Source: an uncultured virus (IMG/VR IMGVR_UViG_3300028414_000637) (lineage: Duplodnaviria > Heunggongvirae > Uroviricota > Caudoviricetes). From it: a DNA stretch of 64,000 bases. Location of the stretch: IMG/VR virus record IMGVR_UViG_3300028414_000637; one strand, written 5' to 3'. The notes below the pieces were generated by a model. The model made no database searches. It was not told where the DNA came from and worked only from the letters and a program-made list of their open reading frames with translations. Both the position numbers and the translations under genes were made by a program. Below, in pieces: positions 5,340 to 63,325 of this stretch; positions within the stretch are counted from its first letter, which is position 1, and each line of letters starts with the position of its first letter.

Positions 5340-5449
5340 TTAATTCAAAAACACCCACTTTTTTGCATTTTTCGATAAATACTTGTAGCAATAAAAGAAT
5401 TTTGCTATAAAGCAATTTATATAATTAAGTATAATTAAGGAGAAACAGA

Positions 5450-36426: not shown

Positions 36427-37208
36427 AACACCATATACCAAAAAAATTAAATCAACAAACACACTTATTAGAATATTTCGCTGGAACTTATGGTGATTAC
36501 TTATCTGGTATAATTTCTTACTCTGTTAAAGGTTATTATGATAACTATGCCACTATGGATGAACATGATAGATATTGGGAAACAGATAAAGCAATAGTAA
36601 GAAGAAATAGATATGCGTTAGGCCTAAGAGGAAACGGATATGAACATGTTGAAAACTATACAGACTATATGCTATCGCATAAAATATGGTTAGATTTTCA
36701 ACCTCATTTTGATTCACTTTCACCAACTAAGGTATTGTTTAATACACATCCTAGATTGATACTAGATTCACCTTATGATAACCCTGAAATCTATAGAACA
36801 ATAACGAATAAATTTAATAGTACACATACCAAGTTTCTGTCTATTTCTTTAGATTTTAATTCTATGTTTAAAGTTGCATGTAATGAATATTATACTAGTA
36901 GGATGCACGAAGAAGACGATGATGCTCTCAGGGCGTTTTATGGCGTCTTCAAGGCGCAAGTAGACAAGCAAAAGGGTGCGTTAATATGTATCCCAAAAGA
37001 TAAACTTTTCGTAGTAAATGATATTGATAATTTATCACCTAAAGATATATCTATATACGGTGATGTTGATAGAGAAAGATTTATACATTACCAAGATTTA
37101 TATAATCTGCATAAAATGGATTTATTGAATTGGTATACTCAACGTTTACTAAAGAAGACACGTATTAGCAGACCAGATTTTATAAAGAGTCTGGAAGATT
37201 ATATATAA
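36423..37208 (+). CDS. Hypothetical protein
   Basis: Y..G..GD motif shared with 43139..43900. Confidence 0.55.
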   Translation: MKHHIPKKLNQQTHLLEYFAGTYGDYLSGIISYSVKGYYDNYATMDEHDRYWETDKAIVRRNRYALGLRGNGYEHVENYTDYMLSHKIWLDFQPHFDSLSPTKVLFNTHPRLILDSPYDNPEIYRTITNKFNSTHTKFLSISLDFNSMFKVACNEYYTSRMHEEDDDALRAFYGVFKAQVDKQKGALICIPKDKLFVVNDIDNLSPKDISIYGDVDRERFIHYQDLYNLHKMDLLNWYTQRLLKKTRISRPDFIKSLEDYI

Positions 37209-38211
37209 AATCTTTAAGTATTTTTCTATCTACATACGGTCTTATGTTATGATTTTGATGGTCTGATATCTTATAATCGATTTCTGTAACACACAAATTT
37301 TCAAAATCAAACTGTTTTACATAATCTGTAAACCCACTGTAATCGGTATCATATTTTCCATATAGGTAATCTACTTTTATATTAGGATATCCGCCTAGAT
37401 ATCTATATGGGTCTAGTGTCTTATTATTAATATCTAACTTTTTAAACCCCCAACATTTTACTAAATGCATCATTGCAACATCTAACATTATTAAGTTTTG
37501 GTCCTTAAGATGTTCTGGTCTATTATGCCATTTCATATATGATTTAATCCAAGGAGAATGCTCCCATGAATATGTTGTTTGTCCGCCTGTAGTTAGTACA
37601 TTTGTTACAATATCACTTAATTCATATGCTATACTTACGGCACTACCGGCATGTTTTGAATCTGCATATATTATAACATGTCTGTATTTCTTTTTGATAA
37701 ACTCTCTTATTTGATTACACATTTTTTCTTGTGTATTATTTTTATCACTACATCCTAACACCATTGCACTAGGGTATAAAGATTCAGGAAACCGTAATGG
37801 ATCCTCATTTACAATTAATAAATCTGTATCGAGGTTATATATTTTATCACTCACATTTGTTAATGAACTTGTAAGTCTGCCATCATGTCCGGCATAGCTT
37901 GTTAGATTGATAATAAGTTTATCGAAGTCTTTGTCTGTTTTCTTCCAGCACATTGTAAAGTCTTCACTCACATTTTCGTACTTATCATCATCATATCTAT
38001 ATACTTTTTTAGAGTTTGAATGCCAACTTCCTGTTAGCGCCTTTTCAAGCCATAGTTCTTCTACCTCTTTTCTATATATTTTGGTATAAATATCACTACT
38101 TTCTATATTGCGTAAATTTAGATATTTTATATACAATATCTTTTCATGCAAGAAGTGAAGGTCTATTTCATTATTTAAATCGATATCTAAATCTAATAAC
38201 TTAATTTTCAT
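37180..38211 (-). CDS. Hypothetical protein, weakly alpha/beta-hydrolase-like
   Basis: 343-aa ORF with minus-strand GATAAATA at 38238-38245; IYADSKHAG nucleophile-elbow-like segment. Confidence 0.55.
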   Translation of the reverse strand: MKIKLLDLDIDLNNEIDLHFLHEKILYIKYLNLRNIESSDIYTKIYRKEVEELWLEKALTGSWHSNSKKVYRYDDDKYENVSEDFTMCWKKTDKDFDKLIINLTSYAGHDGRLTSSLTNVSDKIYNLDTDLLIVNEDPLRFPESLYPSAMVLGCSDKNNTQEKMCNQIREFIKKKYRHVIIYADSKHAGSAVSIAYELSDIVTNVLTTGGQTTYSWEHSPWIKSYMKWHNRPEHLKDQNLIMLDVAMMHLVKCWGFKKLDINNKTLDPYRYLGGYPNIKVDYLYGKYDTDYSGFTDYVKQFDFENLCVTEIDYKISDHQNHNIRPYVDRKILKDFIYNLPDSL

Positions 38212-38296
38212 TGTAAACTTTCATAATATTATATACGTATTTATCTATTGACAAATCGTATATAATCGTATATAATCAGATATATATCTAGGAGAA

Positions 38297-59310: not shown

Positions 59311-60006
59311 ATGCGTATTGAAGAAATTTTAAAACCAATGGAAGAAGGCGTCAATGACCCTCATATTTTTAAAGCAGTATTTTTTGCTGGAGGCCCAGGC
59401 GCAGGTAAAACTTTTGTTGCTAAAAAATTACTAAAAGGTACTGGACTTAAACCTATAAACTCTGATGACATTTTCGAGTTTATGATGGGCAAAGCAGGTA
59501 AAGAATTAACTCCTGACAATATCTATTCAGATGAAGGACAAAGAATTCGTAATCGTGCTAAAGAGATTACTGCGAATAAAGAAGCATCACATATCGCAGG
59601 AAGATTAGGACTTATAATTGATGGTACTGGCAAAGACGTTGCAAAAGTATCAAAAGCACAAGAACAGTTACATCAACTTGGTTATGACACTATGATGTTG
59701 TTTGTAAACACAAGTGAAGAAGTTGCACAGAAACGTAATCAGGATCGCCCAAGAAGTCTTCCTAGAGAACAAGTTAATAAGATGTGGAATTCAGTACAAC
59801 AAAATCTTATGAAGTTTCAGCAACTATTTCGTGCAGGCAACTTCCACATTGTAGATAATTCTGGCGGACTTGAAGATCCAGAAAGAGCAGAAAACTTTTC
59901 AAAAGTTAACAATCAAATTGATAAGTTTCTTATTCAACCACCGTCTAAGCGTCAAGCAAAGCAGTGGATACAAGACGAAAAAACAAAACGCAATACTGGT
60001 CCATAA
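59311..60006 (+). CDS. P-loop kinase, polynucleotide-kinase/zeta-like
   Basis: AGGPGAGKT, INSDD, IIDGT, FV.T..E.A..RN..R.R..P. Confidence 0.8.
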   Translation: MRIEEILKPMEEGVNDPHIFKAVFFAGGPGAGKTFVAKKLLKGTGLKPINSDDIFEFMMGKAGKELTPDNIYSDEGQRIRNRAKEITANKEASHIAGRLGLIIDGTGKDVAKVSKAQEQLHQLGYDTMMLFVNTSEEVAQKRNQDRPRSLPREQVNKMWNSVQQNLMKFQQLFRAGNFHIVDNSGGLEDPERAENFSKVNNQIDKFLIQPPSKRQAKQWIQDEKTKRNTGP

Positions 60007-60066
60007 TAACTATTGACATTCCTCACTAAATATAGTATTATTAGTATATAACTATGTAGGTGAATA

Positions 60067-60921
60067 ATGGATCAAAACATACTAGAAAAATTTCAAAATT
60101 ATCGCAAAAATATTGACTTAGAGTTTATTTCAAAAACTCACGTTCATTATTGTACCCCTTGTTATGGTGGACAAATCACAGAGCCTTTCTTTCGTAGTTG
60201 GACTAAGGCACATATGATGTATACTAGACACGAAATACCTTACTCAGTTACAACTAGTGCAAATGAATCGTTGATATCAAGAGCCCGTTGTCATATGGTT
60301 GCGTACTTTATGGCTAATCCAAAAGCAACACATTTAATGTTTATTGACGCTGATGTTAATTTTGATTGTATTGATATCTTACATATGTTGCAACATGATA
60401 AAGATATTATAGTCGGTGCATATCCAAAAAAAGATTTAGATTGGAGAGGCATAGAACGTAGAATACTAGGTGGCCGTGCGGATACATTAGAAGATTTGAA
60501 ACAAGCAGGCGCCAATTATGCATTGAATTTTGATTGGAACATAGAAGAAGACAATTCACGTAAAATAAAAACTAAAGATGGGTTGGTAAAGTTACGTGAC
60601 GCGGCAACTGGTTTTATGTTGATAAAACGTGAAGTAATTGAAAAAATGATTTCCGCTTATCCTGATTTGTATTTTAATAATGATTTGAATATGGATGAAG
60701 AATTTGCTAAATGGACTTATCTATTTTTTGATTGTATGCATGAACAAGATACAAAGCGGTATCTATCAGAGGACTACGCATTTTGTCGTAGATGGCAAGC
60801 ATTAGGTGGTGAAGTTTGGCTAGACCCACTAATCAATTTAGACCATGTAGGGCACTTTACCTTTTCTGGTAATGTTGGTAAAATATTTCAACAAAATTCT
60901 TCAATCGAAGATGACATATAG
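60067..60921 (+). CDS. GT-A fold glycosyltransferase-like protein
   Basis: TPCYGG, NESLI.RAR, FIDAD (DxD), GAYPKK, TGFMLI.R, SEDY.FC.RW...GG. Confidence 0.75.
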   Translation: MDQNILEKFQNYRKNIDLEFISKTHVHYCTPCYGGQITEPFFRSWTKAHMMYTRHEIPYSVTTSANESLISRARCHMVAYFMANPKATHLMFIDADVNFDCIDILHMLQHDKDIIVGAYPKKDLDWRGIERRILGGRADTLEDLKQAGANYALNFDWNIEEDNSRKIKTKDGLVKLRDAATGFMLIKREVIEKMISAYPDLYFNNDLNMDEEFAKWTYLFFDCMHEQDTKRYLSEDYAFCRRWQALGGEVWLDPLINLDHVGHFTFSGNVGKIFQQNSSIEDDI

Positions 60922-60946
60922 TAAAAGAGGCCTAAGCCCCTTTTAC
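60922..60946. terminator. Probable bidirectional terminator between convergent units
   Basis: GTAAAAGAGG/CCCCTTTTAC imperfect inverted repeat. Confidence 0.5.
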
Positions 60947-60996
60947 TTTTTTGTACCATTGATGAAATCTAATTCTTCTTCTGTGTAAGGCCACAT
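60943..60996 (-). CDS. 17-aa micropeptide MWPYTEEELDFINGTKK
   Basis: Starts 1 nt after the upstream ORF's stop; ends at the terminator. Confidence 0.45.
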   Translation of the reverse strand: MWPYTEEELDFINGTKK

Positions 60997-60997
60997 A

Positions 60998-61135
60998 TCA
61001 AAAACTTCCATACATGTTGTGTTTAAATTCAGAAATCTCATTGGCTTTTTTATAATAGCCTCTACTTCTTAGTTCTCTAATTGCCATACAGTAACTTCTG
61101 TATTCCATTGCTTTTATAAATCTTTTAAACATCAT
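60998..61135 (-). CDS. 45-aa microprotein (MMFKRFIKAMEYRSYCMAIRELRSRGYYKKANEI...)
   Basis: Translated by hand; coupled to neighbour; paralogous motif with 61125..61313. Confidence 0.55.
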   Translation of the reverse strand: MMFKRFIKAMEYRSYCMAIRELRSRGYYKKANEISEFKHNMYGSF

Positions 61136-61313
61136 TTTCTCTTAACATTAATGCTTTAGCTTCTTTGATATACCCTTGACGGTACAACTCACTTGCCGCT
61201 CTTGCACGACCGGCACTCTCACCAAACGCCCATATTGCCATAACCGCTGTTGTAAGAGCCATCTTTATTATTTCACATATTCTGCATGTGCTTCTAATTA
61301 TCATCGTATTCAT
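61125..61313 (-). CDS. 62-aa microprotein
   Basis: TAATG coupling to upstream ORF; GRARAA.EL.RQGY..EA. Confidence 0.6.
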   Translation of the reverse strand: MNTMIIRSTCRICEIIKMALTTAVMAIWAFGESAGRARAASELYRQGYIKEAKALMLRENDV

Positions 61314-61483
61314 TATACCCATCCCTTAAGATTATGATTTACTGTAGTTTCACGCCTTTGTAATACTCGTTGTCTACGCTCTAAGTCAACTAAGTCGTGC
61401 GAACTAGCCAAGTAATCATATTCTATTTGTTCTATTGTTCTTGGTTTTAATTTCTTTAGTAATTTTAAAATAAACTTAAGCAT
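61313..61483 (-). CDS. 56-aa DUF3563-like microprotein
   Basis: Translated by hand: ...EYDYLASSHDLVDLERRQRVL...; GGAAGG SD. Confidence 0.6.
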   Translation of the reverse strand: MLKFILKLLKKLKPRTIEQIEYDYLASSHDLVDLERRQRVLQRRETTVNHNLKGWV

Positions 61484-61676
61484 TAAAATTCCTTCCGATA
61501 TGTCCTAATCCGTGATATCCTTTTGGTCCATCACCTGTTTCTATCATTACTTGATAGGCATACTGCCAATCATTCTTGTATTCTGTTTTGGCCCAAAGCA
61601 TCATGTCCTTTTGCAACTTATTAGAAGTTCTGGACGAAAAGACACTCACAAGGCCGCTGAAAAAGTTCAACGTCAT
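61476..61676 (-). CDS. 66-aa microprotein
   Basis: GGAG SD; WAKTEY..DW.YAY. Confidence 0.6.
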   Translation of the reverse strand: MTLNFFSGLVSVFSSRTSNKLQKDMMLWAKTEYKNDWQYAYQVMIETGDGPKGYHGLGHIGRNFNA

Positions 61677-61708
61677 TTACGTTCTCCGTATAAAATAAAT
61701 TTTCTTTG

Positions 61709-61818
61709 TGCTTGAGGAAAGCAATACCCCGGTCTTTTCCGGCGTCATTCGTTTGTTGTGGCAGTCTGCGCCTGCCCTGGTCTTTCCCAGTGCCAATACA
61801 AGAAAGGACTTCTTGTAT
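61709..61818 (-). ncRNA. Candidate structured 5' leader or ncRNA
   Basis: GC-rich island with several hairpins, including two covarying RAAAGA-loop hairpins. Confidence 0.5.
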
Positions 61819-62004
61819 CACTTTTATTTATATAAATATACACGAATAAATGATGAATTAACAGTGTTTTTTCGACATTCCCGCTATGTCCTAAATGCAA
61901 AGCTACTTGCATACCTCGATAACCTCACTGCATATCAAAATAACTATTGATTTTTTATATTAAATATGTTATTATAACTAAGTAATATTACAAAAGGAGA
62001 CAAT

Positions 62005-62289
62005 ATGCCAAAAGTTTTTTGTTCAAAGTATAATGAAGAATTGCCCGGATTAGAAAAAGCACCATTTCCGGGAGAAGCAGGTAAACGAGTACTTGAGAAT
62101 GTCTCAGAAAAAGCATGGAATGAATGGTTAAATTTTCAAACTATTTTGATAAATGAGAATAGACTAAATTTAATGGATGAAAGTGCTAGGGCATTCTTGT
62201 CAGAGAATAGAGATAAGTTCTTATATGAGCCAGGCGAACTTGCTATGCCTGAGCAATATAGGGATCCTAATATCCCTGACCTAAGATAG
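62005..62289 (+). CDS. yggX: Fe(II)-trafficking / oxidative damage protection protein YggX
   Basis: VFC.K...E..GL...PFPGE.G.R....VS..AW..W...QT.LINE.RL. Confidence 0.9.
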   Translation: MPKVFCSKYNEELPGLEKAPFPGEAGKRVLENVSEKAWNEWLNFQTILINENRLNLMDESARAFLSENRDKFLYEPGELAMPEQYRDPNIPDLR

Positions 62290-62300
62290 AAAGATAGTAA

Positions 62301-62915
62301 ATGGAAATTTCGATACAAAGTGAAAAAGTTCCCGTATGGGAATTAAGTAATGTAACATTACCAAATTTAGACGTACCTGCATTATATAACAATAGTACGG
62401 AAAAATTACTTCCAATGAGTCAAAAACGTGAGCCTATGGACTTAGTTGAAGGCAATGATAATCATCTAAAATTCCAAACAGAATGGCTTAGACATTGTGA
62501 CACTATTCAGACATTTTTAAAGGATGGATCCGCATATAAAGAATGTATTGAATTACAGCCTATGTGGCCTAATGGTTTTGCAAGATTTGATTGGCCTAGA
62601 CATTTAAGCTGTATACAAATAATGCATGACAGAGACGGTTTTAGTATGGGGTCTCATATTGATAACAGGACAGTAGTTGGAGTAGTTATTGTAAATTTAC
62701 AAGATAATCCTATTGGTTCTGGTACATCATTTCATAGGTATACGGATCCTCATAATGTCGAAGACAGTTGGTATCAAGGACCTACTAAAAAAGGCACAGG
62801 CGTATTCTTTCTCAATAATTGGAATACCTGGCATAGTGTAAATAATAGCGGTGGTGGTGATAGACTAATTGCATATAACATTATACCATTATCGAATATG
62901 TTTCAACTTAACTAG
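62301..62915 (+). CDS. 2OG-Fe(II) oxygenase-like protein
   Basis: D..GF....HIDN, NL.DN, GT.F, WHSV, R. Confidence 0.7.
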   Translation: MEISIQSEKVPVWELSNVTLPNLDVPALYNNSTEKLLPMSQKREPMDLVEGNDNHLKFQTEWLRHCDTIQTFLKDGSAYKECIELQPMWPNGFARFDWPRHLSCIQIMHDRDGFSMGSHIDNRTVVGVVIVNLQDNPIGSGTSFHRYTDPHNVEDSWYQGPTKKGTGVFFLNNWNTWHSVNNSGGGDRLIAYNIIPLSNMFQLN

Positions 62916-62920
62916 GTGAA

Positions 62921-63325
62921 TTGATGAAAAAGTTAGTATGGAAAGTACATCTTGTAGCAGACCACGTTAATGCAGGAGGAACTGTTAGTGGAGGAAGGCT
63001 ATTTGATATGGCTGATGTATCGGCATACACTATGATTAATGAAACATTTTTAACAGAAAGACCGGACATTGCGGTAGTTACAAATAGTGCGGATGTTAAG
63101 TTTGTTGCTCCTGCATATGCATATGGCTTTATAGAATCCTATGCTGAAATTATAGAAGTAACACCTGCAAGAATAAATGTATCAATTACGATGCAATACC
63201 GAGACAATAGAAGTTTAGATTGGTATGACTGTTTTGTGGGAACTTTTAGTTTTACATGTTTAGATAAAGCGACTCGCAAAGTTTATAAAATGTCAAAAGA
63301 GGAAATGAATGAAATTAAAAGCTAA
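62921..63325 (+). CDS. Hotdog-fold acyl-CoA thioesterase-like protein
   Basis: N..GTV.GG.L...AD, VVT....V.F..P. Confidence 0.8.
   Translation: MMKKLVWKVHLVADHVNAGGTVSGGRLFDMADVSAYTMINETFLTERPDIAVVTNSADVKFVAPAYAYGFIESYAEIIEVTPARINVSITMQYRDNRSLDWYDCFVGTFSFTCLDKATRKVYKMSKEEMNEIKS

Follow-up and report, generated by a model that had tools for sequence, protein, structure and literature searches.

The minus strand of a 64,000-nucleotide (nt) stretch of the uncultured virus record IMGVR_UViG_3300028414_000637 (Caudoviricetes), referred to throughout as the window, carries between positions 60943 and 61676 an operon of five short open reading frames (ORFs), designated o1 to o5, that encode products of 66, 56, 62, 45 and 17 amino acids (aa). 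A first-pass annotation, prepared from the sequence alone, had described these ORFs as coupled microprotein genes controlled by a structured leader and acting on host physiology. Comparison with relatives indicates that all five ORFs are protein-coding genes under purifying selection, and that the region upstream of o1 is a structured RNA. The five genes constitute a widespread modular cassette of uncultured marine giant myoviruses, and the operon is transcribed in the sea.

The annotation had named conserved gene order and codon-level conservation among the checks on its reading, and both were borne out. Searches of IMG/VR with o2 and o1 led to 7 and 12 loci, respectively, and tblastn recovered the five peptides in identical order in all 19 loci found with o1 or o2, six of which are identical copies while the others share 33-63% identity. 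A profile search with o1 returned 35 loci, 27 of them unique, and in 26 unique loci adjacent genes most often meet with a gap of -1 or -4 nt. Substitutions were counted by the pairwise Nei-Gojobori method on codon alignments, and in every ORF, including that of 17 aa, synonymous change (pS) far exceeds non-synonymous change (pN), with pN values of 0.07-0.45 against a saturated pS of ∼0.7. Median pN and pS are 0.40 and 0.71 for o1, 0.43 and 0.75 for o2-type genes encoding DUF3563, 0.40 and 0.70 for o3, 0.21 and 0.72 for o4, and 0.25 and 0.70 for o5. The median pN/pS over the families is 0.28-0.56 (0.55 for o1, 0.28 for o4), and since the synonymous sites are near saturation the true ratios lie below these values. 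Comparison of o5 with its four nearest relatives revealed 2.5-5 non-synonymous changes on ∼37 sites and 3.5-6 synonymous changes on ∼7.5 sites. The o5 gene was found in 15 of the 26 unique loci, and orthologues of o4 are present in loci L031, L036, L038 and L040. Phage genes of 15-17 codons can evidently persist across deep divergence, yet annotation misses them.

Gene layout and protein families

The genes occupy 61476..61676 (o1), 61313..61483 (o2), 61125..61313 (o3), 60998..61135 (o4) and 60943..60996 (o5), all on the minus strand. Successive genes overlap by 8 nt (o1/o2), by 1 nt (o2/o3, TAATG) and by 11 nt (o3/o4), and o4 and o5 are separated by 1 nt; the sizes and the coupling given by the first-pass annotation hold. 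A purine-rich stretch stands a few bases 5′ of each of the five starts. For o1, the Shine-Dalgarno region was read from the sequence as CGGAGAAC (61681..61688, minus strand), and GGAGA before the first gene is kept across the aligned leaders. An alternative ATG for o3 at 61322 would give a protein of 65 aa, but the 62-aa form is more likely because that ATG lies only 1-2 nt past the Shine-Dalgarno sequence AAGG; initiation of o4 from its second ATG would give 44 aa. Between the convergent genes at 60923..60941 (minus strand), a terminator-like hairpin was read, with a stem of 6 base pairs, a UUAG loop and a following UUU. Its stem recurs in a weak alignment to Prevotella-2 (Rfam), but the hairpin was not called by a consensus terminator scan requiring 5 T, and RNA contigs read across it.

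The suspected DUF3563 protein is o2, which scores 31.4 bits (E 1.9e-7) against Pfam DUF3563 (PF12086), above the gathering cut-off of 26.9, and 30.3 bits when the whole record is searched; the protein in the second slot of locus L016 scores 28.4 bits. Zero Pfam matches were returned for o1, o3, o4 and o5. The window's five small proteins matched no PHROGs family, and four window proteins scanned together with three from relatives matched none in PADLOC or NCBIfam. Family A (o1), family C (o3) and the MWPYT peptide (o5) are outside the families catalogued in Pfam, PHROGs, NCBIfam and PADLOC, and the leader and these three protein families are absent from that set with Rfam included.

Family A is represented in the window by o1, with the core motif WAKTEYKNDWQYAY. 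Its profile retrieved 243 unnamed proteins at E≤1e-3, among which the motif widens to TEY..DW..AY. An AlphaFold2 (AF2) model of o1 contains three helices and is of modest confidence (mean predicted local distance difference test score, pLDDT, 64.1). Longer fused forms of the family did not turn up, a negative that carries little weight as evidence. Both o1 and the leader are absent from 50,697 isolate phage records. A scan of bacterial genomes with the narrow pattern EY[KR]NDW[QE]Y yielded one 9-residue chance match, in a genome that lacks a family A gene, although absence of the family from bacteria is only weakly indicated because the family (TEYG.DW...) is wider than the pattern scanned. 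In one cluster of o1-type proteins of 56 aa (90% identity), a single entry of 573 aa carries the name of an aerobic carbon-monoxide dehydrogenase large subunit, probably through an artefact of clustering or gene calling.

Family C is larger, its profile retrieving at least 1610 proteins at E≤1e-3. The short forms are of ∼40 aa; in the long forms, to which o3 belongs, the shared stretch (GRARAASEL.RQGY..EAKALML in o3) is supplemented by a CxxC motif and a hydrophobic segment, a putative helix in o3. The first-pass annotation had noted that two of the ORFs share a motif, and this was upheld for o3 and o4: when the o4-type profile was aligned by hhalign with an independent profile of 52 o3-type proteins, the probability was 86% (E 5e-6), while a value of 97.8% obtained for o4 against family C is inflated, the target alignment having contained o4. 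On this comparison o4, a basic protein with the motif YRSYCMAIRELR...EISEFK, appears as a diverged paralogue of the family C short form. Three of the 52 family C members have a weak match to the DCC1-like thiol-disulfide oxidoreductases (best E 2e-4). Homology between the family C and DUF1127 profiles was undetectable, although two proteins among the 120 C matches listed (P0225 and P0255) are fusions of a short family C module to DUF1127, a hint that the two modules act together; beyond these fusions, no Pfam family was found among the C matches listed. The last gene, o5, encodes an acidic peptide of the form MWPYT(D/E)EE...

Across the relatives the cassette runs in the order A, then DUF3563 or DUF1127, then C, then optional modules, with MWPYT last. 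The optional modules are a second DUF1127, a C tail (YEP..HY.RGK), a short C paralogue and a hydrophobic peptide of 33-37 aa. Among the 26 unique loci, the second slot is filled by a protein of the DUF3563 type in 10, by one of the DUF1127 type in 8 and by neither in 8. The DUF1127 assignment is clear, since the slot-2 protein of locus L018 scores 42.7 bits against PF06568, for which the cut-off is 23.3. A further trace of modularity is the tail NLKGWV of o2 (61313-61330, minus strand), which overlies the translation start region of o3. The same tail (also NLRGWV or NLQGWV) is found at the end of three unrelated families whenever the next gene downstream is of family C (in the window and in L036, L035, L047 and P0266), and it looks like the imprint of the translation start region of the C gene, moved with the C module by recombination.

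In four relatives (L025, L026, L029 and L004), ∼110 nt between the short C and MWPYT genes hold no ATG-started ORF. The reading frames of three database proteins (P0155, P0162 and P0165) continue across it and include a hydrophobic segment, and a hidden membrane peptide with another start codon may lie there.

Searches for remote similarity were uninformative. Sequence profiles against the PDB gave nothing meaningful (two matches at E 0.04-0.11 for A6, zero for A7 and one at E 0.69 for A8), the ESM Atlas returned only clusters of viral hypothetical proteins at 0.85, too low to count as a lead, and Pfam searches with every member of A6 and A7 revealed no family common to more than three members. 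Prediction of a complex of o1, o2 and o3 with alignments scored 0.00 in two runs in which the controls were not folded, a result that argues neither way on whether they bind, and plasmid searches with o2 and o3 gave zero matches.

The leader RNA and its transcription

The relatives share non-coding nucleotide sequence upstream of o1, which in the window corresponds to a 5′ leader of ∼140 nt (61677..61819, minus strand). The hairpins assigned to it, on the same strand, are P1 (61795-61819), H1 (61777-61790), H2 (61760-61776), H4 (61726-61745) and H5 (61709-61723), and the window leader alone folds into these with a minimum free energy of -40.2 kcal/mol (z -2.77). Within the leader is an invariant 20-mer (61709..61728, minus strand) that includes H5 with its CU-rich loop (UUCCUCA). 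Despite the absence of the leader from the catalogues, this 20-mer has exact matches in at least 119 contigs of each set, viral and metagenome. Among the matches listed, an o1-type gene follows in 58 of 70 unique viral loci, with its start 37-53 nt downstream, and in 57 of 79 unique metagenome loci. The remaining viral loci have a gene of the DUF3563 type (2), the DUF1127 type (1) or another type (5), lack an ORF (3) or are cut (1); the five others comprise three C-like genes, one hydrophobic peptide and one chance match within a long gene. The remaining metagenome loci comprise 13 with other genes, which by eye include at least four o1 variants, two C-like genes, one DUF3563-like gene and one hydrophobic peptide, and 9 that are too short or without an ORF.

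Five helices were set by hand on 26 sequences of a single architecture to give covariance model R1, which found 74 matches in 82 sources; its sole match in the window is at 61705-61806 (49.5 bits, E 6e-11). Across the 74 matches, 96.4% of the pairing cells are paired, compared with 78.3% in shuffled sequences and 27-43% with slid partners. Changes on both sides were observed in 20 of 26 pairs, which is in keeping with the structured leader posited by the first-pass annotation, and the number of double-change cells was 257 versus 56 when shuffled, a value reached by 0 of 500 shuffles. A check that is independent of the model is provided by H4, directly 5′ of the 20-mer, which occurs in 20 distinct versions in 77 loci, every one of which pairs. 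Rfam 15 yielded no match to the leader when the whole window was searched at gathering thresholds, nor when 60800-62100 was searched at E≤10 or 16 related loci at E≤0.1.

The leader hairpins resemble one another in that their loops end in AGA and are closed by C, each being preceded by GAC(A/G). The number of such AGAC-loop hairpins varies from 0 to 4 among 129 unique leaders, the window having three, and two different 5′ domains are found. Such variation in number is easier to reconcile with an array bound by protein than with a fixed aptamer.

A subgroup of leaders (L063, L065, L074, L076, L077, L079, L093, L099, L102, L121-L125 and L127) starts like an H-type pseudoknot, in which the loop of a 4-bp stem pairs with a stretch past an A-rich run; in other leaders a plain long hairpin takes this place. 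Compensatory changes in the pseudoknot-like element were seen by eye in L079, L093, L099, L123 and L127. A loop-loop interaction of H1 with H2, and a helix enclosing the two, were also considered by eye, and were set aside as they showed no covariation.

Immediately upstream of the leader is a promoter-like octamer, TATAAATA (61825..61832, minus strand), which contains the ATAAATA motif of this phage and is of the T4 late type. The promoters of T4 late genes carry the octamer TATAAATA. The ATAAATA core is the commonest intergenic 7-mer in the window, being present in 12 of 33 regions, and its usual form is GATAAATAC, whereas the octamer TATAAATA is not over-represented (5 found versus 10.8 expected). 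The core lies 18-75 nt before many plus-strand genes, including that for the tail sheath, and sites of the GATAAATAC type are found, for example, at 5375, 8217, 11221, 13641, 18000, 25393, 48585, 51906, 54279 and 59286 on the plus strand and at 38244 on the minus strand, the last preceding the only other minus-strand gene (37180-38211). The motif upstream of the leader is kept at the same position in relatives. By analogy with T4, the ATAAATA/GATAAATAC motif is probably the late-type promoter of this phage; a consensus scan for a sigma-70 promoter gave nothing convincing. In loci L004, L025, L026 and L029, as in the window at ∼61865-61895 (minus strand), a conserved small hairpin and an A-run are located upstream of the promoter motif.

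Evidence of transcription was obtained from 19 seawater RNA-seq runs, under separate study codes, that contain 77-89% of the sampled words of 60850-62000. Exact RNA contigs cover 61065-61803 in run X1, 61087-61809 in X2, 61085-61803 in X14, and 61094-61738 and 61709-61814 in X6; single contigs thus span the leader through o3, suggesting co-transcription. In these four runs the depth over the operon is 19-172 compared with 5-34 over the flanking genes, 3-10x that of the flanks, and the operon ranks with the better covered regions of the phage in the seawater RNA. Contig ends at 61803-61814 are 11-22 nt downstream of the promoter motif, and depth at 61852-61965 is zero in X6 and X14. Lack of coverage over the promoter region, together with the shared end point of the contigs, is consistent with a transcript starting there, and the motif and contig ends together give the arrangement of a T4-type late unit, in which a TATAAATA-type -10 element stands just before the transcript start. 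Joints linking 61589 to 61709 in three RNA runs, and also 61164 to 61709, extend over no more than 27 nt on one side and connect the 3′ end of the leader to the conserved core of o1; these are most likely assembly chimeras between strains.

Genomic setting

The virus record that spans the window is of 101,626 bases, with a CheckV completeness of 28%. That the operon is phage-borne, as first annotated, is borne out by window genes for a tail sheath (PHROG E 1e-235), large terminase and ribonucleotide reductase. The best identity of the large terminase is 55%, to giant Pseudomonas phages of the PA5oct-like type, while blastn of 60000-63000 against the isolate phage records gave zero matches. The G+C content is 0.32-0.40, and in the window ORFs of at least 90 aa are almost all on the plus strand; the five-gene operon, which has a plus-strand gene on either side, is one of only two minus-strand units, the other being the gene at 37180-38211, which encodes a 343-aa protein without a Pfam match.

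Host-like accessory genes surround the cassette. In the window these are plus-strand genes for an Fe(2+)-trafficking protein (62005-62289, 108.7 bits), the direct neighbour, and a thioesterase-fold protein (62921-63325), and in two relatives (L036:3511-3930 and L040:3522-4085) genes for a plastocyanin/azurin-family protein and a 2OG-Fe(II) oxygenase. A protein of ∼95-103 aa that follows the cassette in L037 (3409-3720), and similarly in L034, L039, L042, L050 and L051, barely passes Pfam G1RFP ('gene 1 ring forming protein'), the score tested on L037 being 23.1 bits against a cut-off of 22.6. In three distant relatives (L032:2303-3280, L035:3326-4324 and L052:3262-4263) the cassette is followed by a conserved protein of ∼330 aa with no Pfam match.

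Possible roles and comparison with known systems

The account favoured here, tentatively and at a strength short of probable, is that the operon forms a regulatory module of RNA and protein that is expressed late and is analogous to the DUF1127/cuckoo-RNA loci of Alphaproteobacteria. It is favoured because the leader is tied to this cassette alone, because the array of similar hairpins is variable, and because the families of the second slot have the RNA-binding CcaF1 as their best-studied member. PMC8034643 describes CcaF1 (DUF1127) as binding RNA and as co-transcribed with hairpin small RNAs (sRNAs), which occupy the 3′ untranslated region (UTR), or the 5′ UTR in the case of S. meliloti. The operon would then be a late-transcribed, translationally coupled set of five microprotein genes behind a multi-hairpin leader, in which the basic small proteins (o2, and o3 and o4 of family C) would be RNA-binding or RNA-associated factors and the leader the platform that they bind. 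The hairpin array ends in the invariant hairpin with the CU-rich loop, ∼25 nt before the ribosome-binding site, and binding of protein to the leader would set translation of the operon, UUUCCU being able to pair with AGGAGA of the ribosome-binding site. Binding might possibly act also on other transcripts late in infection, and the whole would be a functional phage counterpart of the ccaF1-CcsR loci.

RNA binding, action on host physiology, a link to LysR regulation and control by the leader, all raised by the first-pass annotation, are matters of inference. A bolder form of the RNA-protein account, which is doubtful, is that the cassette is a self-contained viral ribonucleoprotein system not yet described, in which a new class of structured RNA, an AGAC-loop hairpin array with the invariant CU-loop hairpin at its end, would be bound by its own coupled microproteins, and the RNA would be released late in a dominant marine host to reprogram translation or RNA decay of host or phage. 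If the RNA-protein reading is true, the DUF1127/cuckoo-RNA theme would extend from Alphaproteobacteria to giant phages of the ocean, and one RNA with five peptides would offer a compact, testable system for microprotein function.

Several observations weigh against the RNA-protein account. The DUF1127 lead of the first-pass annotation holds in relatives, which carry true DUF1127 in the slot that DUF3563 fills in the window, but not in the window itself: none of its five proteins matches DUF1127 (Arg-rich, with an ...L.D.G..R.DI core) at E≤1, and homology between the DUF3563-type and DUF1127-type profiles is undetectable (hhalign 1.2%). For Salmonella YjiS (DUF1127), PMC11707872 reports no RNA binding and association with the inner membrane. 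With regard to the leader, the Rfam cuckoo-type families also lack a match to it, the CU-rich loop is confined to H5, the other loops being purine-rich, and pairing of UUUCCU with the ribosome-binding site has no covariation support because it is read from invariant sequence. The covariation alignment (A5) was fitted to the model with sequences selected by the exact 20-mer, so that the invariance of H5 arises by construction, and RNAalifold, given 62 leaders aligned with MAFFT alone, recovered only H5, with 4 pairs. The RNA contigs, for their part, show neither strand nor true RNA ends, and DNA contamination of the RNA libraries is possible.

An alternative that we consider unlikely, but a real rival because YjiS is membrane-associated and several members of the cassette look hydrophobic, is that the proteins assemble at the host envelope late in infection, with a part in lysis timing, phage exclusion or membrane energetics, and that the leader merely tunes expression. 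By inspection, the N termini of o1, o2 and o4 are hydrophobic or amphipathic (residues 3-16 form a helix in the o1 model), a hydrophobic segment follows CxxC in the long form of o3, and the promoter motif is of the late type. In L034, L037, L039 and L042 the cassette has gained an insert, the peptide of 33-37 aa, which by eye resembles a membrane helix and which is the first gene after the leader in L128 and L180; the inner-membrane association of YjiS, as reported in PMC11707872, is a further point in favour. However, the window cassette lacks this peptide, the core proteins are basic and Arg-rich, and the constant tie of so elaborate a leader to the cassette would be left unexplained.

Less likely still is that the leader, or part of it, is cleaved off as a trans-acting small RNA or sponge, with a CU-rich loop that would pair with ribosome-binding sites or a hairpin array that would sequester a host RNA-binding protein; the microproteins would then chaperone or process it, in the way that CcaF1 serves the CcsR RNAs. 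The invariant CU-rich loop of H5 and the varying copy number of the hairpins would suit such a role, as would the processing of CcsR RNAs from the UTRs of DUF1127 genes reported in PMC8034643. A separate 106-nt contig (61709-61814) in X6 and a 95-nt contig of a relative, at depth 87 in X2, point the same way, but contigs cannot show processing, and short metagenome contigs usually result from strain branching. Moreover, there is no terminator between the leader and o1, a gene with a good ribosome-binding site always follows the leader directly, and no targets are known.

That the products are instead virion proteins, small and basic, made in bulk late in infection to condense DNA or to be ejected as internal proteins, with the acidic peptide as a partner, seems very unlikely. 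The late-type motif, the high RNA depth relative to neighbours and, by eye, the abundance of Lys and Arg in o2, o3 and o4 are compatible with it, and the match of the next gene to G1RFP in L037, L039, L042 and L034 sets the cassette among packaging genes. Against this, no PHROG family of any kind was matched, DUF3563 and DUF1127 are families of cellular small proteins, and structural genes do not swap as freely as these modules do. The least credible account, a ligand-sensing riboswitch controlling metal- or redox-handling small proteins, could draw on the extreme conservation of the 20-mer, the pseudoknot-like 5′ element seen by eye in the leader subgroup, the CxxC of o3 with the weak DCC1-like matches in family C and the adjoining Fe(2+)-trafficking gene, but the leader varies in architecture (0-4 repeat hairpins, two 5′ domains) in a way that a fixed aptamer does not, no Rfam riboswitch was matched, and the neighbouring genes vary among relatives.

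The literature searched offers little precedent. DUF3563 was not named, the titles and abstract openings retrieved for DUF1127 with phage described no phage-borne DUF1127 gene (the phage mentions in PMC11707872 concern P22 transduction and the phage-shock protein), the combination of DUF1127 with viral and metagenome was unmatched, and nothing related emerged on structured RNAs of marine phages in combination with small proteins and a late promoter.

Among known systems, the CsrB/RsmZ type comprises protein-titrating RNAs with arrays of similar hairpins. The window leader type is likewise built of short hairpins that resemble one another, share a conserved motif in the loop and vary in number, but its loops end in AGA closed by C, GGA is not conserved, and the array forms the 5′ leader of a messenger RNA; in 16 loci searched, no Csr-type Rfam match was found near the leader, the only one being weak, unrelated and elsewhere in L131. 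The T4-type late promoters are matched by the octamer upstream of the operon and by the ATAAATA core before structural genes, while differing from the form usual in this phage. As a member of Pfam DUF3563, o2 is typical in passing the gathering score and in its length (∼50-60 aa for the family), and differs in being encoded in a phage operon with a tail that overlies the start of the next gene; the family itself is without known function. The DUF1127 proteins (CcaF1 of Rhodobacter, YjiS of Salmonella and three of Agrobacterium) are similarly small and basic, occupy the same slot in relatives and occur fused to C, but are absent from the window, and their reported functions diverge, CcaF1 binding RNA and YjiS being at the membrane without RNA binding.

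The closest comparison is with the CIN1 loci (ccaF1 and SMc02051 with the cuckoo/CcsR/NfeR RNAs). The element described here differs from these in being viral rather than cellular, in having DUF3563 in the window in place of DUF1127, and in three extra protein families (A, C and MWPYT) not described for the bacterial loci; furthermore, most leader loops are purine-rich and end in AGA rather than presenting CCUCCUCCC, so that by its loops the leader does not class with the cuckoo RNAs. Nevertheless, both join a gene for a small Arg-rich protein to a repeated-hairpin RNA, on one transcript in the bacterial loci and, as the single RNA contigs suggest, probably also in the window; in S. meliloti the RNA is in the 5′ UTR (PMC8034643), one hairpin of the window leader has a CU-rich, anti-Shine-Dalgarno-like loop, and although the window itself has family A and DUF3563, 8 of the 26 related loci carry a DUF1127 ORF within the cassette.

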